Below the pieces are notes generated by a model. That model searched no databases. It worked only from the letters and a program-made list of their open reading frames with translations, and was not told the DNA's origin. From assembly GCA_964016885.1 (NCBI GenBank), contig CAXHJY010001717.1, positions 1 to 42,801 on the forward strand: 42,801 bases of DNA. The letters are read 5' to 3'. The DNA is from Eledone cirrhosa (lineage: Eukaryota). Both the position numbers and the translations under genes were made by a program. Shown here in pieces: positions 13,436 through 42,801 of the stretch; the stretch's first letter is position 1; every line of letters starts with the position of its first letter.

Positions 13436-13566
13436 CAGCAGTACTGTACTTTATTCATTGACCGTGAAAAGATAAACGGCAAAGTTAACCTCGGCGGGAT
13501 TTGAACTGAGAACGCAGTGGACTCAAACAAATACTGACGCCCTAATAACTCCGCCAATTCGCCATC
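13436..13566 (-). mobile_element. tRNA-derived SINE
   Basis: GGCAAAGTTAACCTCGGCGGGATTTGAACTGAGAAC core. Confidence 0.8.
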
Positions 13567-13764
13567 TAAATTGCCAATTATGACATAAGTAACAATATAA
13601 ATTAAATCAAATATATGGCTGGAAACACAAACCAAATTATTACGGAGTTATTTTATACAAAATATCCTTTCAAACGGATGAACTTACTGCGACATATTGA
13701 TTTCTATCATTGTCACAAGATTACACGAATTGTAGGAGAGGAATAATCGGTTATATAAGCCACA

Positions 13765-13905
13765 ATGCTGATTAATACATATTTTATTGACCTTGGGAGT
13801 ATGAAAGGTAACGTCTCTCTTAGCAGTATTCGAACTCAGAACGCCAAGAATTGTAACTAAATACAAGGCATTTTGTTTGCCGCTCTAACGGTTTATGCAT
13901 CTCCA
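13765..13905 (-). mobile_element. Diverged tRNA-derived SINE
   Basis: TTTTATTGACC...ATGAAAGG...ATTCGAACTCAGAAC...CGCTCTAACG, a degenerate match to the family. Confidence 0.6.
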
Positions 13906-14855
13906 CTGCTTCTTTACTGCTAAATGTTAAAAATAGAAAAACAATTAATGTTTAGTTAAAAAAAACTTATAAGGGGCACTTTTTACCTTGTCATTGGTTG
14001 TTGAAAACATATTCGAACATTATCGCTCAATATTCTATTAATATTGCTAGAACAACATGTAAAACAGATAAACAAACAATAGTCTAAATGAAGTTGAGTT
14101 GCTGTAGGTCTGTATCGGGAATAGTGAATTAAAATAAAAGTAAAATGTGCGAGGAGAAAAAAATATGTAACATTTCTAACATTAGATAAAGTGAAATAAT
14201 GATTATCACACTTTACAAATAAGAAATAACGCAGCCTTCTTCTACACAAACTTTTATGTTCATTCTACAAGTAAGCAGTCTCATTTACGATAACAAATAT
14301 TATGATAAACACGAACAAGAGACGAATAGCTGAAATTCTGGAACGCAAACATTAAAACGTAAAGGCGAAAATAACATGCAAACTTCCAAATGCAATTCTT
14401 GTTAGAGTTATTCAATTATTTCCTTTCCAGATTCTTTTTGACTGTTTGTAATTAGTGAAAAGTAATAATTGGAATCGGTTAGGTCAAAATGAATTGATAT
14501 TTAGAACAGTTAAATTTTCTATTTAGTATGCATCGCACGAGCTACTTTTGTTCATTACTCGAAAACAGAGTACAAACCATAAAATGTAAAATTTTGTTTC
14601 TTCTTAAACGAGCTTGAATGAAAATAGATTAATAAAAAATCATCAATTCTAAAGGGATTTGAAAAAATATGTATATATAGGATTTCAATCGCTATGTTTG
14701 TATTTTGTTCATGCCGTTAGCTAATTGCTTTGATATGTTTAGAATAAGCAAAAATCTTTTCAACCGAAAAAATACAATTCTATTTTCATCATAGCTCACG
14801 AAAGCAAACACACATTCATTGAAAGAGAGTTATATATATATATATATATATATAT

Positions 14856-14949
14856 ACGAAGGAATTGTGGTAAGGAACCAGATGGACCATAACGCACCAG
14901 AAATAGCCGTCGAAACGGTTTGAGCTCTGCCGTCGGGGTCATACTTTTT

Positions 14950-14951
<2 letters not shown>
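14856..14951. mobile_element. 96-bp mini inverted insertion of the PLE family at 30425-32450
   Basis: 14856-14899 matches the reverse complement of ~32405-32448; 14898-14951 matches ~32315-32368 directly. Flanked by (TA)n on both sides. Confidence 0.85.
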
Positions 14952-15017
<66 letters not shown>

Positions 15018-15492
15018 TTACAATAATCAAAGTTCAGTTTAAATCATTTATTTGCTTACAATTGTTTCCTCCAAACCGAGGTTTGGATTCTTCGGAGCAA
15101 CTATTTAGTGATCTATAACATACTTGACCTCCTTTTCAACACAAGAGACATATAAAAACATATGCATATATTGACCCACAGTGGGTTGACATCCATCATA
15201 ATGATATAGCATGGCAATTTACATATAAAGGTTAAAGGATTAAAATTAAAATAAAAATAAAAATAAAACATTGGCAGTTTATGAATATAAAGCAAGAGGA
15301 AAGTTTAGAGTAGTCAGTGTATGAAACAATCTCACGTGTGGCATGCACGCGTGTCTTATTTATACAGGATTAGAGTGCGGCAGATTGTTACTTGTAGAAT
15401 CAGGCAGTTAAAGCAGGCAGTCAATAGCATCATGTGTGCCGTATTGTTAAATCATTTTTTCGCATACACCTGTACGATATACAATCCCGAAT

Positions 15493-15494
<2 letters not shown>
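15018..15494 (-). mobile_element. Probable solo pseudo-LTR / 3' end of a Penelope-like element
   Basis: Lies between microsatellites and carries an HHR motif followed directly by AATAAA on the minus strand. No coding homology recognised. Confidence 0.5.
15052..15100 (-). ncRNA. Type I hammerhead ribozyme motif (U4->C core variant)
   Basis: Minus strand: TTGCT-CCGAAGA-a-TCCAAACC-tc-GGTTTGGA-g-GAAA-CAATTG-TA-AGCAA. Stems I and II pair; stem III is palindromic (ACAATTGT). Confidence 0.75.
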
Positions 15495-15527
<33 letters not shown>

Positions 15528-16081
15528 AAAAAGTAAACGGAAATAACAGCAGAATCGGTACAGTATATGGAAGGAATATATATATATATATATATATATG
15601 AATTGTTATACTTTGGGAGGGTCATGCTGCCAATAAAAGCACACGCACCTGTTGGTTTCACTTCAATGTCCGGTTGGTTGGTTGAATAACAGGATGGTTG
15701 TTTATATATTGTCAAAGCTTTTATCGTCACACATTCTGTGATCTCCACAGTGACTGATCTCTTATTTTGTGTCCCTCCTTTGTTCTGTCCTACACCATTT
15801 TGTTTTTGTTTGTTGTATGCCCAACACAAAAGTAGGGTGTACTTTGAAGGCGATTTGGCTGCTATATCTAGCAAGTTGAGCGATTACGAGATGCTTGGGA
15901 AGTAGTGTAACAGTATAGTGAAATACAATGTAATGCTAGGAATAGTGTCAATATGTCCATTCTTCAAATTGTGAGTTTGTGTGTGAAAATGTTGTCATGC
16001 ATCAAGTTTGCAACAACGAGCAGCTAAGGTCATTACTTATATCTCTTGCAAAGAGCTGCTATGCCACATTAGTGAGCGACA

Positions 16082-16490
16082 GTGTGTGTGTGTCTGTGAT
16101 ATATACATATACACCAGGTCCAAACACAAAGGAACCAAAATCCCACTGTCACTGCCTCCGTCTCTCCCGGTCTCCCCATCTCGTACTATTAGGAGCAAAT
16201 GGGGGCCCACGCGTTGGCCGCCCCGCCGCCCCGACGAAAAGAATAGAGAAGGCGTTTCCCCGGGAGATGGCGAGGGAGAGGCGCTGGAAGAGTCATTCCA
16301 GCTCGCGTGGCTCACACCTGTGGGTAGCCAAATCTGTGCCGATGGTAGTAAGTAGGGAGGTAGCCCTAGGGCCGAGGACACCAGAAGTCTCCACTGTTAC
16401 GGGCTCGACTGTAAACCTGTCGGAGAGCTACCGATCTTTGGAGAATTTACCCTCCTCGGCCCGAAGTGTAGCAGAGCCTGGGTTAGTCGC
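16082..16490 (-). mobile_element. 3' fragment of CRE retrotransposon (variant 3' UTR)
   Basis: Antisense of VATNPGSATLRAEEGKFSK...VETSGVLGPRATSLL...ELEWLFQR; 3' UTR shared with 7706-8000 and 17945-18480. Confidence 0.9.
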
Positions 16491-16820
16491 AACTATTCTA
16501 ATATTCTAAATATTTCATGAGTTATTTGGGTTGCTCACTTCATAAGAACTCATCCCTTTCTTTCTGAGATTGTATGTGTGTAGGAATAATGTCAGACTGT
16601 TGTAGTAGCTGTCGTGGTTGTTATTGACGAAATTATCGACCCCATGACTGTTGTTATTGTAATTGTTCTTACTGTAAATGTTACTGCCGTTGTTATTAAT
16701 GTCAATCGACATTATGAATTCTTGGTGCAGTGGGTGTCAAAATATCATCGATCATTATCAGGAACAAATACAAAAAAAAAAATCATATAATTTTGGGGTT
16801 CAACATTTGTGGTATAGACC

Positions 16821-17070
16821 TCTTCTTCTTCGCTCACTTATTCATGAGAGGGTCGTGGAGGCAGAGTCCTCAAACTCTCCTTCCAGCGGGTCATGTCAGA
16901 AGCAACCGTCTCCTACTGATTCGGCTGGACCCCCAAGCGAGACCAGCCAAGCTCATGGATGTTATCCCGCCATCTTGTTCAGGGTCTACCCCTGGTTCTC
17001 CTGCCAGTTTGTTTTTCCCGTAAAATCTGTCCAGTGATTCTTTCTTGAGACATTTTAACCACATGCCCAT
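16821..17070 (-). mobile_element. 3' end of RTE-clade LINE
   Basis: Minus strand reads GHVVKMSQERITGQIL...GRRTRGRP.TRWRD...W and ends in a short (GAA)n tail. Confidence 0.75.
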
Positions 17071-17944
17071 AACAAATATAAAGTTTTTTTAAAACATCAT
17101 ATTACTGGCTGGGATTTGTTCATTGTTTCTCAATAGCTCTAAAATTTCAATAAAAGAACTATTCAACATTATTAACATGCAATGATTTCGTCTCTCATAA
17201 ATGTAAATAACAATTTTCTTTTATCTCTATTTTTTCCATACATTTACTTTCTTTTTATTTTATTCCCATACTTTAAGCTCTAAATATTTGTCTTGTTACT
17301 TGATTCGAGTTTCAACTCACGTTAATGAGTTTAGTCAACTGTGCCTGTCCCGGGTCATTTTCTCACAAAACTGGATAGACAGCTATTGTTTTCTCACTGA
17401 ATCTAGACGAGACATTTCTGAAGCCATATACATTTATATATTTAGATATGTATATTGTTTTCAGCTTATGCCTAACTAGAATATTACCAAACTATACCTC
17501 AATTGAACATGTTACATATTTACGAAGACCCAGAGACATATATTTAAGGTTTTCTACAATACACTTCACTATATCTATTCTACCCCTTTTTTTATAGCTA
17601 TTTATAAACGTACCGTATTGTTGTTTAAACATATGGTATATATTTTATAAAACACTGTGCTGGTTGACCCAATTTTAAAATCCTACTGTGCTTGTTACTC
17701 TGATCATGATGAAAGTGATGATGATGATGATGATGATGATGAGGATGATGAGGATGATGTCGCTGTTGATGTGGTTTGACTGCATATCCTGATTTCAATA
17801 ACGTTCAGCAAGTATGAATGTATGAATCAGATACACGGCAGGCCACTGATGAAAGATAAAAATAGGTACGTTAATGTCTGCTTCTGTGATGATAAGCATA
17901 CCAAATACCTACAGCTGAAGGTGGCGGTAGTGTATAAAGCCTGA

Positions 17945-18480
17945 ATGGTTTGGATGCTGCAGGTTTCCCCTCCCAGTTCGAGCCGGTGCGGCTAAACCGA
18001 GGGGACGGCAAAAGGCCAGACGGCATGGCCATCTTCCCGTTTCATATTGGTAAACCCCTCGTCTGGGATGCCACTTGCAGCGACACATTCTCCAGCGGTA
18101 ACCTGGTGCAGTCTGTGACTAACTCAGGTTCTGCTGCACTTTTGGCTGAGGAGGGTAAACTCTCCAAGTATCGGTCGCTCTCCGACAGGTTTGCAGTTGA
18201 GCCCCTAGCAGTAGAGACTTCAAGGGGCTCTAGGGCTACCTCCCTACTTACCACCATAGGCGCTGAGCTAGCGAGCTGCAGGTGTGAGCCGTCTCGCGAG
18301 ATGGAATTGCTCTTCCAGCGCATCTCCCTTCTCCATCCTTCCGCCGGGCTGTGGGGCGGCCAGTACGTGGGACTCCATTTGCTCATAATTGTGAGAGATG
18401 GGAAGGGCGAGAGAGATGGAGGCGATGACAGTGGGAGTTCGGCTTCTCTGTGTTCGGACCTGGTGTACGTGTATGTGCAT
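17945..18480 (+). mobile_element. 3' fragment of CRE retrotransposon (variant 3' UTR)
   Basis: ORF 17950-18504: DAAGFPSQFEPVRLNRGDGKRPDGMAIFPF...WDATCSDTF, nearly collinear with 5715-6140. Confidence 0.92.
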
Positions 18481-18849
18481 TCTTACTGTCTTATGTTTGA
18501 TTAATTTTAACGTTTGCTCCCTTCCGGATCCTCTTTGAGGTTACGGGGTACGTTTCCTTTTCCGTCCATCCTACACCTTCTAGGACAGGTTGTATACCCA
18601 TCACCAGACTTTTGGGCGTTAGATGGAAACTGCAATATACTTTTTCGAATAGGGCCTCTCTATTTAAGGTCCGAATGAGTGCCTTGTTAACGTACGCGAA
18701 GGACGATGCGGTGATTTTCTCAGATCCGCGAAGACTAGGCTTTTTTTAGAGACGACATTTATCCGCCTCCTCGTAACTACAACGCTGGGTTGTAAAAGCT
18801 TTTTTCTTTGAATTAACAGGAAACATAATAAAGAATATCAGATCAAATA

Positions 18850-19032
18850 TAATTGTTTCTACTTTTTGGCACAAGGCCAGCAATTACCTAGTGCATTACT
18901 GGTACTTTATTTTATCGACCCCGTAAGGATGAAAGGCAAAGTTAACCTCGGCGGGATTTGAACTCAGAATGGCAAGGGCCGTAACTCTATGCATCGAAGC
19001 ATGGCGTCCGACCCTCTACCGATACTGCCAAT
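18850..19032 (-). mobile_element. tRNA-derived SINE, full length
   Basis: Near reverse complement of 9994-10183. Confidence 0.88.
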
Positions 19033-20573
19033 TGTTGTTCTGAACGTTGAAAAGGATAGCAGTTCATATTTCAGAGACTATGTGTTTTGATTTAGGCGTC
19101 TCAGCGACTCAGTTTTATAATTTGATGGTAGACGTATATCTCTGAATGCCTACCAACATATTATCTTGCGGTCAGACTCACTAAGTTATCTCTCCCCTTT
19201 TTAGTCCCTCATTTCAGTGATTAGAATAAAAAAAGAAAAGAAAAAAAACCCCGAAATATTCTGTGTTATGAAAAAATAACCAGAGTGAACTAGTGAACTG
19301 ATACAAACTCATCCATCAACTGAAAATAGGACACGTCATTTGGTATAACGTGATTGATTCAGTCGGTTTCACCCATATCTGTTATATTAATTTTTTATCT
19401 GTGACAAGCACCACACAGCAGAGGAAGAATACGGTTCCGGTAAGTTGTGTTGAAAGCCTAGTTTCAGATCATCATTGGAACCACGTGACATCACTTACGT
19501 CAGTAAATCCATTGGAAAAATTATGAATATTTCTCTTGAGCAAAGATGTCAAGATTTGGTTTGGAATGTAGTAGCAAAAAAAATAAAAAATAAAAAATGG
19601 TTAAGAGTAGAGCATTTAAATAAATATTTCACCGTATTATATTAAGTTCACACCGAAACACCCTTCAAAAACTTGACTCACAAGTAGTTGACCTCTAATT
19701 CAAAGCGATCGTTTTGAATATTAATTTCTTACTTGCGCATTTAGACCTTAAATTTGCATTAGCCATGTCAATTTTTATGACTTAATTAGAGAAAGATAGG
19801 AAGTATGTATGACGCATTTCTAGCACTCCAAAACTGACCGAAAGAAGAGTAAAAGTCATTCTCGCACAGTAGAGCAAACCTTAGTACCTTTATCAGAGAG
19901 GTGATGGTGCTAAATTGGGCAACGGAATTAAGTGTACGAATTTTTTAACTACATAACAATGAAGTGGTCTTAACTGTTTCAATTGAATCATGAAACTAAT
20001 GCAAATACTTGACTTAACGAGAGCTTAATTTTTTATGCGTTGACGCACTCCAGCCATTGGAACGAGTTAATATAAAATATTACATATTTTCTTTTATGAA
20101 GTCTTGATAAATAAACCTAAACAAACCAACAATGCTTAAATGTTTAAAGAAGTGTAAAATATAGTAGGAAATTTAATAATCAATTTGTTTACTGAGTCAC
20201 AAGACTACCAATGTTTAATGGTAGGGACTGTGGTTATCTGATGTTTATGATTTTTTTAGGTGAATTTGTGAATAAGAAAAGTAAAGACACATCACATTTG
20301 AATCAAATTAATGTTATGAAATCATCTGATCGGGGGTGGGGGACTTTCTATGTTACAACGTCCATCAGAAGGAGCATCACTTATTGTTTCTGAATGAGAC
20401 ACAAAGTCTTGTATTTATTATAGAAGCGAAGAAATGATGTCATGATGTTAAGGTCTTTCGAGAGATGTTTGTAAATTAAAATAGCTTCTCCTTGAAATCG
20501 TAATTGGGCTGCACAATCGACCCGCAGGAAGCCTATTTCTATAATCCTGTGCAACGTTGCCAGCTACATGGGA

Positions 20574-20681
20574 AATAATTGTTTCTACTTTTGGCACAAG
20601 GCCAGCAATTATCCCAGTGTATTACTGGTACTTTATTTTATCGACCCCGTAGGGATGAAAGGCAAAGTTAACCTCGGCGGG
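20574..20681 (-). mobile_element. tRNA-derived SINE, 5'-truncated
   Basis: Tail and core only. Confidence 0.85.
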
Positions 20682-21094
20682 GGGAAATAATGATTCATAT
20701 TAACACTATTAACAAATAAATGCAGATGTTAATACCAGCATATACAGCGGAAACTTACTATCGTTTAATGTCATCTGTAGATTTGGCTAATATTTTAACT
20801 CATCATATATTCTGTATAAACAGTTCGTGCTGACTGAGAAAACTATATCAACATAGTGTGAAACATAGTGTGTTTAAGATTGAAACATATGCATGTTTTA
20901 TAGCCTAAGTTACATTTTAACCCAAATGGTTTAAATCGTTTTTCTGATACCCCATGAGATAAAATAAATTTGTTTTCGTTTTGTCCCCGTAAATCTGAAG
21001 CACCATATTAAGGTTCACGGCAAGAAGACAGCATTGGGTTTTAAAATGGATTTACTAGTTGCTTTTGTCTTATCAATCGTTATATTCTCATATT

Positions 21095-21240
<146 letters not shown>

Positions 21241-21719
21241 GAGTGTATGTACGCGTGTACGTGTGTGCATTTCTAAATTTAAATATATGTATATATGTGA
21301 ATGTGCATTTATTTGTGTGCAGTCGATGTTTCTAAGTGGTCATGTGAGGCTATTAGAAGTAATTTAAATCATTTCATGATATAAAAGCAAATAAATTAGC
21401 AGGGTCTGTGGTTAAGAAATAGGCTTCACAACAGCAGAGCGTCAACGAGGACCAGTAAGAGAGGATTTGTAAATAAAGTTGTAAGAGTGAGAAAGAGGAG
21501 ATAAGAGAGAAGGAGAGGGAGAAGGGGGAATAGAGAGAATTTATAAAAAGTTATGCTCAGACAAATAGATATATATAGACCTACATATACATGATACTTA
21601 TTATTATATTACATAGATATACATACATGCATACATAAATACATTTATACATGCATACCTATATGCATGTATACATTTTTACCTGCATAAATACATATAC
21701 ATACATACACGATGGCTGC

Positions 21720-22195
21720 AAACTCTGCTAAGAGTATTGCAATCGCTTGTCAGATTATAGAGTTTGGGGCACTTTTAGGCTACCACCAGCCACACGAACC
21801 TGTAACATATCCTGAACAAGCAATGCCTCTGCTTTGAAGGTTTTTTAAGTGGGGAAAGGCTTTGTACTCGACCAATCCCACTCTCTGAGCATCGAAAACA
21901 CTACCTGAAAAGGAGAACCGGTCAACATCATCGGAAGCTTTCGAAGCCGCAGGTTTGTTTTCAGAGTTTCCCTCTCCTAGAAAGGTTCTGTGACAACAAC
22001 TGGTGGCCTTTCACTCCCAGGTAAAACACAAAAAAAAACTACTATTTGGATGGTCGTTGACTCTGCCGAGTTCCTCCGCCCTTTGCCGGGTTTCGTATTT
22101 CATCCTGCAGGGTGTCCAAATATCACCCTCCTCACCAAGCTATCTTGGTGGGGTTGCCGGTTTAGTCGCCGACAACCCAACCATGAGACAGGTTG
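21720..22195 (-). mobile_element. Probable 5' UTR fragment of an RTE-like LINE
   Basis: GC-richer block between (CATA)n tracts. Minus-strand motifs GGCGACTAAA and CTAGGAGAGGGAAACTCTG..AAACC resemble RTE 5' UTRs as I recall them; not verified. Confidence 0.4.
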
Positions 22196-22581
22196 TAAAC
22201 ACATGCATACATGCATACATACATACATACATAGATATTTCCATACATACATAGATATTTCCATACATACAAATATATATGTGTGGAAAACGAGACGTAC
22301 AGAGTGAACGTGAAAGAGAAAGCCAAAGAAATTGCAAGAGAAAAAATGCTTAGCATTAGAAATTATTGCGTAATAAGAGGGCTAGAAAACAGGAAAGTTT
22401 TGTTTTAAATTACGTTATGAATTTTTAAATATGATATGATTAACAGCTAGTTTAACTAATCGAAATATCGATACTAATGACAAGAAAATTATGTAGGTAC
22501 GTCTGCTGCATGAAAATCTAATATTAGTGAATCAAGAAATGTTAACTATCTAATATTACACCGGTAGTGATGTGAAACAAA

Positions 22582-22950
22582 GCGGTGGATTGGCAGTATC
22601 GGTAGAGAGTCGTACACCATGCTTTGAAGCATAGAGTTACGTCCCTTTATGATCTGAGTTCAAATGCCGCCGAGGTTAACTTTGCCTCTCATCCTTGCGG
22701 GGTCGATAAAATAAAGTACCAGTAATGTATTGGGTAATTGCTGGCCTTGTGCCTAAAATAGAAACAATTATTTCTACTTTTGGCACAAGGCTAGCAATTA
22801 TCCCAGTGTATTACTGGTACTTTATTTTATCGACCTCGTAAGGATGAGAGGTTAACTTTGCCTTTCATCCTTACGAGGTCGATAAAATAAAGAACCAGTA
22901 ATACACTGGGATAATTGCTGGCCTTGTGCCAAAAGTAGAAACAATTATTT
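22582..22950. mobile_element. Cluster of three SINE pieces in +/-/+ orientation
   Basis: Full + copy 22582-22770, minus 3' half ~22766-22850, plus 3' half ~22848-22950. Confidence 0.88.
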
Positions 22951-23344
22951 TAATGATCAATTAGAAAAGGAAAGTCAGACAAACATAAAATTTAAATTAA
23001 TTAAAAACATAGAATATGTTGTGTTAATATTCTCCAATAGATAAAAATAACTTCATAAACCCCTGACAAAAACTCACAGTAATTATCTAAAAAGCATGTT
23101 GGGTATGTTCATGATGAATCTCCGATTGAAGTAATTTCATTATTGAACTTTCATCTGACCCACCTTGGTGATTTTTGCTCGAAACAGAAGAATAACATTT
23201 AGAAATTAAACAATCAATATAATCAAGGTGTTAGTGAAAAAATAAATTGGTGGTAATTTCTTCAAAGAGTCATGTCTAAGATCGGGTTTCAAATCTCTGA
23301 TGTGCTGATTTTATTTCAGCCAAGTTTTAACACTTTAAAACAAA

Positions 23345-23626
23345 TCGTTCTCCCGCGATAAAGTATGTTATCTTACTTATCCAGAGAAGTTGTGGTGTTC
23401 ATGCTTTCACGTGCTTTTTCAGCTAAGTTTTAACTCTTTTACACAGCTCGTTCCCCCGCGATAAAGTATGTTATCTTACTTATCCAGAGAAGTTGTGGTG
23501 TTCATGCTTTCACGTGCTTTTTCAGCTAAGTTTTAACTCTTTTACACAGCTCGTTCCCCCGCGATAAAGTATGTTATCTTACTTATCCAGAGACGTTGTG
23601 GTGTTCATGCTTTCACATGCTTTTTT
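23345..23626. repeat. 103-bp tandem repeat, ~2.7 copies
   Basis: TCGTTC.CCCGCGATAAAGTATG starts at 23345, 23448 and 23551; copies nearly identical. Confidence 0.95.
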
Positions 23627-23939
23627 CAAAAGGCGTCAGTCTTGATTAACAATTAAATATTAGGAACCATTTAATAGGAGACTACTCACTCTAAACTATC
23701 AATTTCTCATATGAACTCAGTGCTACAAATTTGTTGAAACAACGAAATATAGTGAATTGACCCTCAGATTGAGATTGGCACATGTATCGATTTTCGAGAT
23801 ATATGTAAAGTTAAACCTTGTAAGTTTTTAACTCAGAATGTATACAGACAACAAAACTAATTACACGCGTGTATTTCATTGCTCTATTGTTTGTATCACA
23901 CTAAAGTTAATTTCGTAGGAGACAGTTTGTAGAAATTTG

Positions 23940-24132
23940 CAGACCTGTCTACTCTCCCATCCGACGGAGAGATCTCCCACACACTTTGGAGTGGGTTAGA
24001 GATGTCTTCTCTTGTGAAAACGGATATAGCTTTCATAATGTAAAATCTCCCCATTTTGCCTCATTTCTCCCCGTTTTGAGGCACTTTTTTCATGCTACTC
24101 CTCGTTTGGGGTTTTAGATGTTGGCAGGTCTG
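23940..24132. mobile_element. MITE copy C
   Basis: CAGACCTGTCTAC...GTTGGCAGGTCTG; flanks AATTTG / TATTTA. Confidence 0.85.
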
Positions 24133-24247
24133 TATTTAGATATTCCCACCTTATTGATTCTTAACAGGAGGAATAAACTATCTAACTGGATACAGGTAAA
24201 TCATCCAATCAAGCGTTGTAATGTCTCAATTATATTGCATATTTAAA

Positions 24248-24410
24248 CAGACCTGCCAACTCAAATGGTAGTACCATGAAAAAAAGTGCCCCAAAACGGG
24301 GAGATTTTACATAATGAAATCTATACCCATTTTACAAGAGAAGACATCTCTCACCCACCTTGGGGTGGGTGGGAGATCTCACTGTCGTACGGGGAGAGTT
24401 GATAGGTCTA
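24248..24410. mobile_element. MITE copy D (internally deleted, inverted relative to C)
   Basis: CAGACCTGCCAAC...GTTGATAGGTCTA; flanks TTTAAA / CTTAAA. Confidence 0.85.
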
Positions 24411-24454
24411 CTTAAAGAACAGAATTGTAGTGGAATGAATCGACAGCGGCATAG

Positions 24455-30374: not shown

Positions 30375-30426
<52 letters not shown>

Positions 30427-30441
30427 ATAGGAACAAGTAAG

Positions 30442-30536
30442 ACCCCGACGGCTGAGCTCAAGACGTTTCGACGGCTAATTCTGTACTGAATGAAAAATTA
30501 ATTCTGGTATTTAAATAGCCGAACTTATCAAGAGGT
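30442..30536 (-). ncRNA. Type I hammerhead ribozyme, U3-A8 core variant (left arm)
   Basis: Minus strand: ACCTC-TTGATAA-Gtt-CGGCTA...TAGCCG-tC-GAAA-CG...CG-TC-GGGGT. Confidence 0.7.
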
Positions 30537-30641
30537 AATTCCATATATGGTCAAAGAGATAATCACCAGGATTGGTCACATCACAAGTTAGTAGTAAATC
30601 TGTGATGGCAAGTTGGTGGGGGAAGGGGTAGCAAAACCTGC

Positions 30642-31545
30642 TTCAATTACCTTACCGCTACTTACTGCCGCCTTGGACTTCGCAGAAGCACTTGTGCCCA
30701 TCACCGACCAGGAAAGAAAAATCATCCTCCACGCCAGGAAGACAGTCTTACTCTTTGACAACGCCAAATGGATAAAAAGAGCTCCTGACTCACCCTTCGA
30801 CGTCAGCATGGGCGCTACGGATTCGGCGGAGGTCACAGATCTTATAGGATTATTCCTTATAGCCAAACTCACCGATATGTTTCCTGCTTTCGGTGGTGGA
30901 TTGTACCGTGATGATGGGCTCCTTACCCTTAAAGGGTACAACCCCAGTAGTACAGATCGGGTCCGTAAACAATTAATCAGCCTCTTCCGCGACTGGGGAT
31001 TTAAAATAACCATACAAACGTCCCTGACCCAAGTTAATTTCCTGGACGTTACCCTCGATCTCAATAATGACCTGTACTACCCATACAGGAAACCCAATGA
31101 CAACCTGCACTACATCCACCGCCGATCTAACCATCCCAGGAACATCACCAACAACCTGGTCAAAAACATCTCCCTCCGTATATCCCGTTTGTCAGCTAAT
31201 GAACATGCACCTTACTACAACCAGGCCCTCAAGCGGAGTGGTTTCCGGGAGGAAATATCCTACTGTCCAGCTCCCATTAGCGGAACCAGCAGGCGACACC
31301 GCCGCTCACGCAATGTAACATGGTTCAATCCTCCCCACAACGCTGAGGTGACAACTCCCATCGGGAAAATTTTCTTTAGGCTCATTGAAAAATACTTCCC
31401 ACCACAACACCGCTACCACAACATAATTAACAAAAATACCATCAAACTCTCTTACAGCACTACACCTAACTTCGCACAAAACATCGTCTCCTCCAACAAC
31501 AAAAAACTCAACCCCGATGGAAGAAACAACCTAAATAGCAGTGGT
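30642..31545 (+). pseudogene. 5'-truncated PLE reverse transcriptase + thumb, no GIY-YIG domain
   Basis: SIT...FDVSMGATDSAEV...GLYRDDGL...VNFLDVTLDL...PYRKPND...YIHRRSNHP...WFNPP; the frame then runs into non-protein-like sequence. Confidence 0.88.
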
Positions 31546-32221
31546 ATCTTGTATAAGACCTTTTGTTTCGTGGCGGTACCCTTAGAGTTAGCACCAGTAT
31601 TTTTTTGCGGGACCCTGAATTATATTCTCATACTAGTTTACTTTCTTGCACTGGGTGGTTGCTGGCCCTGTGTTTGGGGTAGAAACCTTTATTATTTTCG
31701 TGGTAGTCTCTTTAGTATTCTGGCCCCCCTTCTGTTGACCCGTCACCGTACGATACACGCACTTATACCTCGTATAAGGGTCCCTTTCTTTCCGTCCCAC
31801 CTAGTTTTTTTCTATTATTATCATTTATTTTTTTATTCTACATTATATATATATATATATATTTTTAAAAAATTTATTTATCTATTCTTTTATTCACTTA
31901 TTTGTTTATTTATTTATTTATGTATTTCTTCAGCCTAGCAATAGCGAGAGACTGAAGTCTTAGTAACCAGATTTTGCTTATATTTTTTTCTCTCTCAGTA
32001 CCTTTTACAGTTTTACCTTTCATTGTTCTACTTACCGTTTCGACCTCCTCCCCCTCCTCCTCCCCAGTATCCTCTTTGACCTCACACCCAGCTGTAGCTG
32101 GCACCACCAACGCATGAATGGGTCTACTCCACCCCCTCTCCCCTTTTCTCCTACTGGCAGGTTTTGCTACCCCTTCCCCCACCAACTTTCCATCACAGAT
32201 TTACTACTAACTTGTGATGTG

Positions 32222-32313
32222 ACCAATCCTGGTGATTATCTCTTTGACCATATATGGAATTACCCCTTGATAAGTTCGGCTATTTAAATACCAGAATTAA
32301 TTTTTCATTCAGT
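32222..32313 (+). promoter_or_regulatory. Putative Pol II promoter of the pseudo-LTR (CCAAT, CArG-like, TATA-like, Inr)
   Basis: CCAAT 32223, CCATATATGG 32248-32257, TATTTAAA 32281, TCATTC/TCAGT 32305-32313 (26-30 nt after the TATA). Motif evidence only. Confidence 0.45.
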
Positions 32314-32356
32314 ACAGAATTAGCCGTCGAAACGTCTTGAGCTCAGCCGTCGAGGT
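32262..32356 (+). ncRNA. Type I hammerhead ribozyme, U3-A8 core variant (right arm)
   Basis: ACCCC-TTGATAA-Gtt-CGGCTA-(38 nt)-TAGCCG-tC-GAAA-CG-tcttgagctcagc-CG-TC^GAGGT; predicted cleavage after 32351. Confidence 0.7.
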
Positions 32357-32729
32357 CTTACTTGTTCCTATTACTCACTCTACTACCCTAAGTATTGAGT
32401 ACTTTGGTGCGTTATGGTCCACCTGGTTCCTTACCACATTTCCTTCGTTATATATATATAATAAATACATGCATGTTATGTTCTATGAATGCGTGTTTGT
32501 GTATCAGATATTCTTATTGGTACAAGCATTGCCCGACAAGAATTTGTTTAAAACAAAGTATAAATTAATTTTCACTAACCATAGATATACGTAGACATTT
32601 ACCCATGCCTACATGGAACTCATATGATGGCACACAATATTATAAAATATACTTTAGCTTTTCATTTTATTGTATAACTCTTTTGCAAATAATAAGATAA
32701 TTAAGTGTTATAGTTTACTTAAAGCATTG

Positions 32730-34690: not shown

Positions 34691-35044
34691 TCCTGTGTCA
34701 GTGTTGAGCAAAAGGACGACGATGGTTGCCGAACACTGTACGGCTTAATTCGGGCTGTTTGTTTACAAACAAACCGAACATTATAATAAATGTTCGGTAA
34801 ACCCATACGTACATATATATATGTGTGCATGTATGTATATATATACATACTACTGTACGTCTGTATACATATATGTATGTACTTATATATACATACTTAT
34901 ATATATATCAAGTAAGTATGTTTTGAAACAGTGAGCAGGTGTGAAATTAGAAAATATATAGCTTTCACCGTATTTTTGACTAAAGGAATTTTTAGCCTGA
35001 TAATGGGGTTTAGAACCCTCAGATAAATGGAAAAAGATGAGTAT

Positions 35045-35115
35045 TGACGTACATGGGAGTCGAACCCACATCTGTGGTTATCGCGACCACTCTGCTACCA
35101 TTACACCAACACATC
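35045..35115 (-). tRNA. tRNA-like sequence / SINE head (left arm)
   Basis: A-box TGGTGTAATGG, B-box GGTTCGACTCC, cloverleaf stems; mirror of 35124-35194. Confidence 0.6.
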
Positions 35116-35123
35116 ACCCGGAT

Positions 35124-35194
35124 GATGTGTTGGTGGAATGGTAGCACAGTGGTCGCGATAACCACAGATGTGGGTTCGACTCCCATGTACGTCA
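35124..35194 (+). tRNA. tRNA-like sequence / SINE head (Gln-like scaffold, non-canonical loop CG-CGA-TA)
   Basis: Acceptor GATGTGT/GTACGTC (three G-U), anticodon stem GTGGT/ACCAC, T arm GTGGG-TTCGACT-CCCAT, T5 terminator 9 nt downstream. Lacks U33, so probably not a translating tRNA. Confidence 0.6.
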
Positions 35195-35277
35195 ATACTC
35201 ATCTTTTTCCATTTATCTGAGGGTTCTAAACCCCATTATCAGGTTAAAAATTCCTTTAGTCAAAAATACGGTGAAAG

Positions 35278-36030
<753 letters not shown>

Positions 36031-36150
36031 TATTAATAAGAGGAATTCCAACTTTGTCTGATTTACTCGTTTTATTTACAATCCTTTAAAATATATATAA
36101 TGGTATTATAATGAAATAGTATGATAGAATATTAAATTCTAAGTGTTAAT

Positions 36151-36189
36151 TGAACAAGTACTTTCATGCTTTCGCAATCTTCAGGTTCA
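36151..36189 (-). ncRNA. Minimal type I hammerhead ribozyme (left arm)
   Basis: Reverse complement of 39512-39550. Confidence 0.85.
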
Positions 36190-36564
36190 TGATATGTGGT
36201 GACAGTCGAGTTTGCAATTTTCAACTGTAATGAGATGGGTAAATTTCCTACCTTTTATACATTTTATACAGAGAAAAGTGGCTCCAGAATGCAAAGCCCT
36301 GTAAACTGTATTTCGACCAATCAGTGTGTAGTTTCACTGAATTACTACAGCTGATTGGTTTAAGCGTCACGGCTGGTTGAGCATGCTAACGACCAATAGT
36401 CATATCCAACGTATCAATTGTTTTGCTTTTTTGAAATGATGAAAATAGCATTTTCTATTAATCATCACCATCAACATCACTTTTATTATTATTATTATTG
36501 TTGTTGTTGTTGTTGTTAGTGGTCGTGGTCATAGTGGTAGTAGAAGTAATACCCCTAGGCGTTA

Positions 36565-37565
36565 TTATTGTTCATTTAGCTTGGGTTTGAATTTATCAAT
36601 AAAATTCTTTTCTTTGATTTTTCTCTTGATTTCATTTGGGCTGTGTAATTTGTAGAATGGGAATATTATAAATATTCCCTGACCACATGTTGCCAGGTGG
36701 CCGCTTAGGGGTATCTGACGGACATTTGGGTCTCTGATTTGTTGACGGTGTACCCGTGCACGTTCCGATAGTGCATTTCCAGTTTGACCGACATATAGTT
36801 CTTCACAATTCGGGCATTTAATGCAGTAAATTAGATTTCTGCTTTTGCAGTTCATATTTGCATTTGTGAATATTTTTCCAGTTTTTGTTTTCATATATTG
36901 ACCGGCGTGTATGGATTGACATGTGCCGCATCGATTATCATTGCATTTAGATACAGTGAATGATTGGTCTTTGTTGTTAAGGTCAAACTTTGCTTTTGTT
37001 AGCAATTGCTTCAAATTTTTTGGCTGTCTTTTACTAAGAGTCAAAGATCGATCTGTGATTAAGCCTTTTAATTCATTACTTTGAGCAATGATCGGTAGGT
37101 TTGCTTTGGCAGTGTTGAAGATATTCTGGTGACATGGGTTGTGTGTCATTATAAATGGTATGACCAGTTCTTGGTTTCTTCTTCTTTGGGTTGTTCTAAG
37201 TTGTTGTATAGGTATTTTTATAGCCCGCTGTATGCCATTTTCTATAAGTAGAGATGGGTATTTTTGTTTGAGCAAAAATTCTCTTAGTTCTGTTAGGCGT
37301 TTGTACCTGGTATTCGTATCTTCTACAATGGTACAAATTCTTCTGGCTAGGCAGTATGGGATGTTGCGTTTTGTATGAGGTGGATGGCACGACTTGAAAT
37401 TCAGATATTGATGGGTGTCTGTGTGTTTATAATATATATCCGTGGTAATGGTGGTGTCGTTTTTGATTATCATTATATCTAGGAATGGTAATTTGGTCCT
37501 ACTCATCTCTTTTGTGAATTGGAGAGATGGGTGTAGGTTATTCAGGAGGATATTGAACTCATCCA
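36565..37565 (-). CDS. Inverted duplicate of the C-terminal part (thumb + GIY-YIG) of the PLE ORF
   Basis: Protein identical to the + copy from DEFNILL to KLNEQ*. Confidence 0.85.
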
Positions 37566-39136
37566 TTAAATTATTACACCCAAAAGACTTAAAACTTAGA
37601 CCTATTATAGCTGGTCCAACATGCCCCACTCACCGTCTAAGCAATTTTGTTGACATTATTTTGAAACCACTATGTATTCACATACCCAGTTTCATCAGGG
37701 ATGATATCGACTTCCTGTCCCATCTTCCCAAAACCACGGAAACGAATTCACTTCTACTCAGTTTTGATGTGGTAAGCCTTTACACCAACATTACACATGA
37801 TTTAGGAATAAAGGCGGTTAAATACTGGGTGGAAAAACATAGAGAAGTGATTCCCATTAGATTCACAGCGCCATTTATATTAGACGCAGTTAAACTTATT
37901 CTGGAAAACAACACTTTCTTCTTCAATGGAAAGAATTACATCCAAATTAGAGGCACAGCGATGGGAACGAAGTTTGCTCCCGTTTACGCGAACTCTGTAA
38001 TGGGATACTTAGAACAACAACTCTACCAAGAAATAGAGGAAAAATATAGTACTGACTTTAGAAAGTACATTGAAAAATCTTGGAAGAGATACCTTGACGA
38101 CTGTTTCATCATCTGGACAGAATCTTTAGATACTCTGGATGAGTTCAATATCCTCCTGAATAACCTACACCCATCTCTCCAATTCACAAAAGAGATGAGT
38201 AGGACCAAATTACCATTCCTAGATATAATGATAATCAAAAACGACACCACCATTACCACGGATATATATTATAAACACACAGACACCCATCAATATCTGA
38301 ATTTCAAGTCGTGCCATCCACCTCATACAAAACGCAACATCCCATACTGCCTAGCCAGAAGAATTTGTACCATTGTAGAAGATACGAATACCAGGTACAA
38401 ACGCCTAACAGAACTAAGAGAATTTTTGCTCAAACAAAAATACCCATCTCTACTTATAGAAAATGGCATACAGCGGGCTATAAAAATACCTATACAACAA
38501 CTTAGAACAACCCAAAGAAGAAGAAACCAAGAACTGGTCATACCATTTATAATGACACACAACCCATGTCACCAGAATATCTTCAACACTGCCAAAGCAA
38601 ACCTACCGATCATTGCTCAAAGTAATGAATTAAAAGGCTTAATCACAGATCGATCTTTGACTCTTAGTAAAAGACAGCCAAAAAATTTGAAGCAATTGCT
38701 AACAAAAGCAAAGTTTGACCTTAACAACAAAGACCAATCATTCACTGTATCTAAATGCAATGATAATCGATGCGGCACATGTCAATCCATACACGCCGGT
38801 CAATATATGAAAACAAAAACTGGAAAAATATTCACAAATGCAAATATGAACTGCAAAAGCAGAAATCTAATTTACTGCATTAAATGCCCGAATTGTGAAG
38901 AACTATATGTCGGTCAAACTGGAAATGCACTATCGGAACGTGCACGGGTACACCGTCAACAAATCAGAGACCCAAATGTCCGTCAGATACCCCTAAGCGG
39001 CCACCTGGCAACATGTGGTCAGGGAATATTTATAATATTCCCATTCTACAAATTACACAGCCCAAATGAAATCAAGAGAAAAATCAAAGAAAAGAATTTT
39101 ATTGATAAATTCAAACCCAAGCTAAATGAACAATAA
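37566..39136 (+). CDS. 5'-truncated but uninterrupted PLE protein: RT, thumb, Cys linker, GIY-YIG endonuclease
   Basis: LRPIIA, FDVVSLYTNI, GTAMG, RYLDD, LPFLD, CNDNRCGTC, NLIYCIKCPNCEELYVGQT...R...H. The first ~41 aa of ORF 37442-39136 are only antisense read-through from the inverted arm. Confidence 0.93.
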
Positions 39137-39299
39137 TAACGCCTAGGGGTATTACTTCTACTACCACTATGACCACGACCACTAACAACAACAACAACAA
39201 CAATAATAATAATAATAAAAGTGATGTTGATGGTGATGATTAATAGAAAATGCTATTTTCATCATTTCAAAAAAGCAAAACAATTGATACGTTGGATAT

Positions 39300-39475
39300 G
39301 ACTATTGGTCGTTAGCATGCTCAACCAGCCGTGACGCTTAAACCAATCAGCTGTAGTAATTCAGTGAAACTACACACTGATTGGTCGAAATACAGTTTAC
39401 AGGGCTTTGCATTCTGGAGCCACTTTTCTCTGTATAAAATGTATAAAAGGTAGGAAATTTACCCATCTCATTACA
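39300..39475 (+). promoter_or_regulatory. Putative pseudo-LTR promoter (three CCAAT/ATTGG boxes, TATAAAA, Inr-like)
   Basis: ATTGG 39304, CCAAT 39343, ATTGG 39380, TATAAAA 39433 and 39442, TCATT ~39468. Confidence 0.55.
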
Positions 39476-39511
39476 GTTGAAAATTGCAAACTCGATTGTC
39501 ACCACATATCA

Positions 39512-39550
39512 TGAACCTGAAGATTGCGAAAGCATGAAAGTACTTGTTCA
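39512..39550 (+). ncRNA. Minimal type I hammerhead ribozyme (right arm)
   Basis: TGAAC-CTGAAGA-t-TGC-gaaa-GCA-t-GAAA-GTAC-TT^GTTCA; palindromic stem III AGTACT. Confidence 0.87.
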
Positions 39551-39719
39551 ATTAACACTTAGAATTTAATATTCTATCATACTATTTCATTATAATACCA
39601 TTATATATATTTTAAAGGATTGTAAATAAAACGAGTAAATCAGACAAAGTTGGAATTCCTCTTATTAATATAATCTTCTATACACAATCATACACACCCG
39701 TGTATATTTACCTATCTAT

Positions 39720-42801
<3,082 letters not shown>

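Follow-up and report, generated by a model that had tools for sequence, protein, structure and literature searches.

A putative transcription start site within loop II of a U3-A8 hammerhead in a Penelope-like retrotransposon of Eledone cirrhosa

The stretch of DNA analyzed here, referred to as the window, comprises 42,801 nucleotides of a contig from Eledone cirrhosa (CAXHJY010001717.1) and contains, at 32222..32356 of the forward strand, a hammerhead ribozyme motif within an insertion of a Penelope-like element. This insertion consists, in this order, of an inverted arm, a 5'-truncated reverse transcriptase (RT) piece, a deletion of the endonuclease region that comes next in full copies, a 3' UTR, the hammerhead and a tail in (TA)n. 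The inverted arm (30425..30641, reverse strand) is a pseudo-LTR piece that matches unit positions 3397-3530 and 1-63, carries a second complete hammerhead and ends near +61 in (TA)n, where positions with a sign are counted from A32311 as +1. It is followed on the forward strand by the RT fragment of a Hydra-clade element (30639..31544; amino acids 327-633 of the open frame P0002, 94%) and by the 3' UTR or upstream part of the pseudo-LTR (31544..32247). Downstream of the hammerhead lies the tail (32357..32451), in which insertion 3' ends at ~+61 (32371) and ~+141 (32451) are joined to (TA)n; we infer that reverse transcription starts at these two sites. An ATG at 32414-32416 (+104), in the putative 5' UTR, opens a short frame ahead of the main ATG. 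The window contains a second, short fold-back copy of the same kind (14856..14954, forward strand), whose forward arm begins near +4 in loop II.

Several further features were observed in the window. A second, different Penelope-like insertion with 2.3-kb inverted arms in (TA)n is found at 35278-40423 and encloses a frame of 567 codons (37433-39136), which matches RVT_1 and GIY-YIG weakly; beside it, two tRNA-Ser(CGA)-like genes stand back to back as an inverted pair (35044-35116, reverse strand, and 35123-35195, forward strand). A GC-rich (~60%) block with open frames (2982-6179, 16103-16491 and 17938-18501) is partly repeated elsewhere in the window, and a Pfam search gave no match for its frames. 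Short interspersed repeats of several families, 70-290 nt long and in part arranged as inverted pairs, are spread over 6921-24412, and a 103-nt tandem repeat is present at 23314-23625.

The hammerhead belongs to the pseudo-LTR of a young, high-copy Hydra-clade Penelope-like retrotransposon. Across the 3.0 Gb of genome searched, a tail motif of 30 nt occurs 21,988 times without mismatch (control: 0); of the first 100 tails, 97 continue into (TA)n. Full copies are arranged in tandem arrays with a repeat unit of 3,531 nt, and two neighboring units differ at 1 position. The unit carries the 784-codon frame P0002, a 784-aa RT/GIY-YIG ORF with its main ATG at +232 and with no AATAAA or ATTAAA downstream of it within the unit. 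P0002 shows, read by eye, the RT motif YRDD and a GIY-YIG-like C-terminal end (VIY..AYIGLT), it is 36-37% identical to three metagenome relatives over most of its length, and a Pfam search of P0001 and P0002 matched no family. Its motifs RWR, DKT and C-N-C-X5-C fit those given for the Hydra clade (Craig et al., 2021, PMC8557442), and this motif-based placement agrees with the tandem and inverted pseudo-LTR structure with a tail and with the insertion in (TA)n. Five lineages were separated by eye, namely A (containing the window copy), B (the youngest, with intact arrays), C, D and the diverged F. One copy (L245, contig C1 of genome G000 near 5,772,300) has a U3-G8 core, an F-like 5' arm of stem II and a D-like loop and 3' arm, and is an intermediate or chimera between lineages. 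In another locus (L064:4171-7742) ~65 head-to-tail repeats of a 55-nt ORF piece lie at the inversion point of a tandem array, which suggests repeated template jumping by the RT.

Every motif named in the original prediction was found in its place, in the forward copy as well as in the inverted arm, and the two arms, which both contain the core TTGATAA, are 98.6% identical over 217 nt (30425-30641 vs 32157-32373). On the forward strand the 5' arm of stem I (ACCCC, 32262..32266) precedes the catalytic core U3 U4 G5 A6 N7 A8 A9 (TTGATAA, 32267..32273), of which position N7 is occupied by all four bases across lineages. The 5' arm of stem II (32274..32282) comprises G10.1, a 2x1 internal loop and CGGCTA (32277-82); the 38-nt loop II (32283..32320) follows, and the next segment (32321..32332) comprises the 3' arm TAGCCG (32321-26), C11.1 and the core residues G12 A13 A14 A15.1 (GAAA, 32329-32). 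The proposed stem CGGCTA/TAGCCG closing a 38-nt loop is thus present, and it was overlooked that stem II reaches the core via the pair G32274-C32328 and the 2x1 internal loop. Stem III (32332..32350) is formed by 32332-36 and 32346-50 and closes a 9-nt loop with the self-complementary GAGCTC and the palindromic word TGAGCTCA (32338-45). The triplet GTC at 32349-51 places C17 at 32351, where the last segment, consisting of C17 and the 3' arm of stem I (32351..32356; GGGGT in the family), begins; the cut is predicted after C32351, i.e., at +41. Folding additionally predicts a distal stem I with an internal loop. The family shows the core of a type I hammerhead, with a Watson-Crick 3-8 pair, G10.1-C11.1 in 14 of 14 copies and a GUC triplet, and an Rfam scan of the window contained no hammerhead family among the best 150 of 168 matches. 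A minimal, dimer-dependent Penelope hammerhead, in which stem III is absent or of 1-2 bp and its loop palindromic, was considered and rejected, as the family has a 5-bp stem III, which folds already in the monomer; the palindromic loop III is retained although stem III is of this length.

The original prediction did not recognize that the window copy is damaged by two stem-breaking changes. T32335, which breaks stem III, and A32353 in the 3' arm of stem I replace G and G of the family, and with both of them stems I and III have a pair probability of 0-0.02 and the copy folds poorly alone (fold z-score 0.69). All three helices form in family copies, and in the family-type copy L002 the hammerhead is the minimum-energy structure with pair probabilities of 0.82-0.98 for stems I-III. 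T32335 is found in 3 of 120 complete-core entries, two of these being the window's own arms, and G at 32353 makes up ~99% of the depth in public runs. At the stem I pair 32265/32353 the forward arm has C/A and the inverted arm T/G, each a separate change from the C-G pair of the family.

At the family level the hammerhead exceeds chance, with 8,187 genome matches of the complete-core pattern vs 118 for the reversed control. In a structure alignment of 14 hand-chosen copies 90.2% of the cells are paired, and the covariation check that had been proposed revealed three compensatory pairs in stem II between lineages D and F. None of 500 shuffles reached the observed paired share, the number of double-change cells or the covariation score, which are inflated by the relatedness of the copies and owe their signal mostly to the single split of D vs F, and the remaining two of the five structure measures were reached by 63 and 170 of the 500 shuffles. 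When lineage A is compared with B, C, D or F, the 36-nt stretch from a CC(A/T)6GG box to stem II, which lies wholly upstream of +1, is 89-94% conserved; between lineages, similarity is 49-75% in the 150 nt that precede the box and 38-81% in the part of loop II upstream of +1. This pattern of conservation suggests that the ribozyme is under selection as RNA.

The reading of the core as U3-A8 instead of C3-G8 was borne out, and the motif is a U3-A8 type I hammerhead in a Penelope pseudo-LTR. U3-A8 is found in 74 of 100 listed 5' halves, C3-A8 in 24, U3-G8 in 2 and C3-G8 in none. A C3-A8 mismatch is expected to cause a large loss of cleavage rate. The C3-A8 form occurs in both arms of ORF-carrying insertions at all four loci inspected, so that an intact 3-8 pair is unnecessary for spread. 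The junction pair G10.1-C11.1 has a pair probability of 0.03-0.10 in lineages A and C and of 0.62 in lineage B, where U3-A8 is combined with the stem II junction that pairs best. One ordinary C3-G8 short-loop hammerhead is shared by the three long relatives from metagenomes, and the long-loop U3-A8 design was not found in them. U3-A8 cores in Penelope hammerheads are not new, as natural U3-A8 variants exist (PMC3088659) and ~1,300 matches are given for Schistosoma Penelope-like elements (PMC4209133).

Promoter-like motifs surround and enter the ribozyme. The TATA-like word TATTTAAA (32281..32288, forward strand) lies 30 nt before +1, with its first two bases forming the top of stem II, and the spacing from TATA to +1 is 28-31 in 106 of 106 matched copies. 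The word is TATTTAAA in lineages A and B, TATTCAWA in C and TATTTATT in D, and it is absent in F. CCAAT (32223..32227, forward strand) is present in A and C and absent in B and F. Neither the TATA box nor CCAAT is therefore a conserved part of the design, as had been proposed; both were rejected as family-wide elements, and a TATA-initiator promoter of RNA polymerase II fits in its spacing though not in conservation of TATA. The elements that persist across lineages are YYAGT (TCAGT at 32309..32313, forward strand), which we take to be initiator-like, and the CC(A/T)6GG box CCATATATGG (32248..32257, forward strand), which fits the CArG/SRF consensus. The box is kept in A-D and F with changes confined to its A/T middle (ATATAT, ATATAA or AAATAA), homology between lineages begins at it (loose ends at 32248), and it is likely an upstream promoter element at -63..-54.

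As insertions are cDNA copies, their 5' ends mark the end of the template or the point where the enzyme departed. These ends were determined for 100 of the 21,988 tail matches, namely the first ones along the genome; the tail motif at +96 was the only criterion and imposed no selection on the upstream sequence. Half of the forward arms (50 of 100) begin at -4..+7, including 10 at +1 and 9 at +2, none begins at -149..-6 and 7 extend beyond -150; 21 begin at +8..+39, 2 at +40..+44 and 20 further downstream, part of these downstream ends belonging to diverged lineages for which the three references are a poor fit. Where an arm ends at -1..-4, added runs of T or A are often present. Among the adjacent inverted arms 50 of 70 end at -5..+7 and none further upstream, and a similarity-picked set of 29 other copies gave the same picture. 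Genome-wide there are 29,100 arms with +1..+19 (the pattern excludes C at -9) vs 6,162 matches of 5' halves and 8,187 complete cores, and in a hand count of 100 listed +1..+19 arms 34 continue into the template (4 of them uncertain) and 66 do not. The summed depth of contigs from four public runs of unspecified kind (2 samples of 1 study, possibly from the same source) rises about twenty-fold across 32300-32317, from ~75,000 to 1.7 million, and mixed loose ends are present at 32311 in 3 of the 4 runs. In lineage F (3,518 arms) inspection by eye places the break again at TTAGT, 10 nt ahead of the corresponding stem arm; of 16 rows picked as template-like, 3 extend into the 5' half and most of the remainder begin at a second boundary, 12-14 nt further upstream and also within loop II. 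Two starts without a TATA-like word, and a focused start with one, are common in promoters of RNA polymerase II.

Short insertions thus have a hard upstream limit at A32311, strong though indirect evidence that transcription probably starts inside loop II. The start had been proposed at ~32307-32311, and the 5' ends indeed pile up at A32311 in TCAGT, the second initiator candidate, and not at TCATTC (32305-10). We infer that the limit corresponds to a start of RNA polymerase II that is set by the YYAGT initiator together with the CC(A/T)6GG box; the TATA-like word would merely sharpen it in some lineages. At the base before +1, G occurs in 13 of 58 arms (with A 2, C 25 and T 18), but it is as frequent before breaks at +2, +4, +5 and +7 and hence not specific to +1. 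What is new is the genomic evidence for a start inside loop II: a search of the open literature turned up no description of transcription starting within the loop of a hammerhead.

The boundary could alternatively be an enzymatic stop, at which the RT stalls or switches template or the RNA or cDNA is nicked at YYAGT, with transcription starting upstream and covering the whole ribozyme as in Drosophila virilis Penelope. The spread of the ends over +1..+7, the base counts before +1 that are not specific for a cap G, and the position of the lineage F boundary directly 3' of an inner hairpin would be consistent with such a stop. However, a structural stall is expected 3' of stem II (~+18) and not ~17 nt further in an A/U-rich loop, none of the 100 ends falls in -149..-6, and the boundary tracks YYAGT in lineages with loops that are 38% alike and lies ~30 nt behind the TATA-like word and ~55 nt behind the conserved CC(A/T)6GG box, which makes a stop quite improbable. 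Splicing could create the switch if TTTTCATTCAG in loop II, which resembles a pyrimidine tract followed by YAG, were the 3' splice site of an intron that removes the 5' half of the ribozyme, and the D. virilis Penelope intron does end at helix I (PMC4209133, PMC2377424). This splice-acceptor reading was rejected as very improbable because, among 100 copies, 10 have their first base at +1 and 9 at +2, which are the A and the G of that very AG, and the sequences ahead of them are unrelated, with no exon in common.

A different question is whether the ribozyme cuts at all. The start may be located in loop II while the hammerhead is a slow or decaying passenger, in which case the promoter crept into a tolerant loop, cutting in vivo is negligible and the helices either serve protein binding or survive as recent relics. 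The C3-A8 form in 24 of 100 5' halves and in ORF-bearing insertions, the lack of a 5'-end peak at the cut site and the weak G10.1-C11.1 junction of lineages A and C speak for this possibility, as do the poor in vitro activity of Penelope hammerheads (PMC4209133) and an anole element in which cleavage is unnecessary (PMC11167929). It is nevertheless somewhat unlikely in view of the 89-94% conservation of core, stem I and the 5' arm of stem II upstream of +1, the free position N7 combined with compensatory changes in stem II, and the youngest lineage B having both U3-A8 and the best-paired junction (0.62).

The best explanation as a whole, to which we assign a probability of roughly 0.55, is that transcription starts in loop II and that the complete ribozyme is present only in the read-through copy. 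The RNA of the element would start at A32311 (+1), so that its 5' end would contain no more of the ribozyme than the 3' half. With the 5' half of the core left out of the transcript, this end would be kept, and the capped mRNA with its intact 5' end would then be translated from the ATG at +232. In the absence of a poly(A) signal after the ORF, the RNA would run into the next pseudo-LTR, where the whole hammerhead could fold and cut at +41, slowly or in part, yielding an RNA 3' end or unit-length monomers. Starting at +61 or +141 near the RNA 5' end, the RT would run off at +1 and leave the abundant fold-back copies of 60-140 nt. Cleavage by the hammerhead in vivo is fairly probable, and the full 5'/3' switch postulated by the original prediction has about even odds. 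The absence of a pile-up of 5' ends at the cut site (2 of 100 copies begin at +40..+44) may reflect that the uncapped 3' cleavage product is simply degraded. In most full-ORF insertions that were inspected, the sequence continues past +1 into part of a preceding unit; such insertions were accordingly templated by uncut multimers, by circles or by molecules that arose when synthesis jumped from the 5' end to the repeat at the 3' end. Likewise, every copy running through a complete hammerhead required an uncut, re-joined or jumped template. A model with circular templates has been described (PMC4209133, PMC6765202).

It is possible, though unlikely, that the pseudo-LTR is organized as a retroviral U3-R-U5, in which +1 to +41 would be a terminal repeat of 41 nt and a strong-stop cDNA would jump to the 3' end made by the ribozyme. 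In that case the strong-stop cDNA made by the RT from +61 or +141 would account for the tens of thousands of short copies, and the jump would restore the promoter together with the missing 5' half of the ribozyme, giving rise to tandem copies of more than unit length without a circle. A scar of such strand transfer is not supported by the complete copies, in which purines occur 14 times at -1 (6 G at 3 loci, 8 A) vs 13 times at -2. The hairpin of loop III can pair with itself (predicted self-duplex, -30.7 kcal/mol), so that in a dimer a complete ribozyme could cut the 5' half. An alternative AGCCG/CGGCU hairpin, with a probability of 0.03-0.19 in short folds of lineage A and of 0.97-1.0 in 260-nt folds, would block this dimer cleavage and is predicted to be dominant only in the longer folds.

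The Eledone element resembles the Hydra-clade elements in its C-terminal GIY-YIG, the RWK-like and DKT motifs, the CxCX5C linker, the (TA)n targets, the tandem and inverted structure and the hammerhead in the pseudo-LTR (PMC8557442). In contrast to the 26 Hydra hammerheads of supplement S2 of that source, which have C3-G8 and a loop II of 3-10 nt, it has U3-A8, a loop II of 37-39 nt, a 5-bp stem III and a 3.5-kb unit; two plant PLE-X1 rows of the supplement have loops of ~30-35 nt, and no start site is mapped there. The Cercyon Penelope-like elements of Schistosoma (PMC4209133) share the U3-A8 pair and the element class, and the natural U3-A8 variants (PMC3088659) the same compensatory core pair, but these hammerheads are minimal motifs with short loops, and in the accessible parts of both sources no start inside the ribozyme is reported. 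D. virilis Penelope is similar in that promoter and start lie in the pseudo-LTR, that the promoter is initiator-based and that a partial tandem is required for expression (PMC2377424, PMC4209133). Its start lies ~120 nt before the ribozyme (46 nt and a 75-nt intron ending at helix I), so that the primary RNA holds the whole hammerhead, whereas the putative start in Eledone splits it.

In L1Tc of Trypanosoma cruzi (Pr77/L1TcRz, PMC3383444) one short sequence also serves as DNA promoter and as self-cleaving RNA. Promoter and HDV-like ribozyme share the same 77 nt there, and the ribozyme is wholly included in the transcript and cuts at +1; unlike this, the Eledone hammerhead straddles +1 and would cut at +41 only if the upstream sequence is co-transcribed. 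The plant retrozyme NbRZ1 likewise combines a terminal-repeat promoter with a hammerhead, but the transcript of the repeat itself is cut at its 5' end and is untranslatable (PMC12029980), an outcome that a start inside the ribozyme would avoid. Retrozymes were linked to Penelope pseudo-LTRs (bioRxiv 10.64898/2026.07.22.740005), a source that in its accessible part adds nothing on starts. For the anole Poseidon element PAc it was described that the RT initiates internally, at two sites shortly after the hammerhead, which the Eledone tail ends at +61 and +141 match, that hammerhead mutants still insert in vitro and that no reads ended at the cut site; PAc differs in its C3-G8 core, in protein-assisted cleavage and in an ORF start within stem II (PMC11167929).

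The role of the hammerhead in Penelope-like elements is puzzling, as it is present in nearly all of them, cuts slowly in vitro and is not required for insertion in the sole reconstituted system. If true, a start within the ribozyme would reconcile a capped mRNA with a self-cutting RNA in the terminal repeat, and the model predicts sharply that +1 is capped and that +41 is cut only in read-through RNA. Long-loop U3-A8 hammerheads are missed by standard descriptors, and the "half core" cases with 35-50-nt spacers of PMC8557442, as far as they are described there, may represent the same design. The 5' ends of insertions would furthermore provide a map of transcription starts from DNA alone, which would be applicable to other families.
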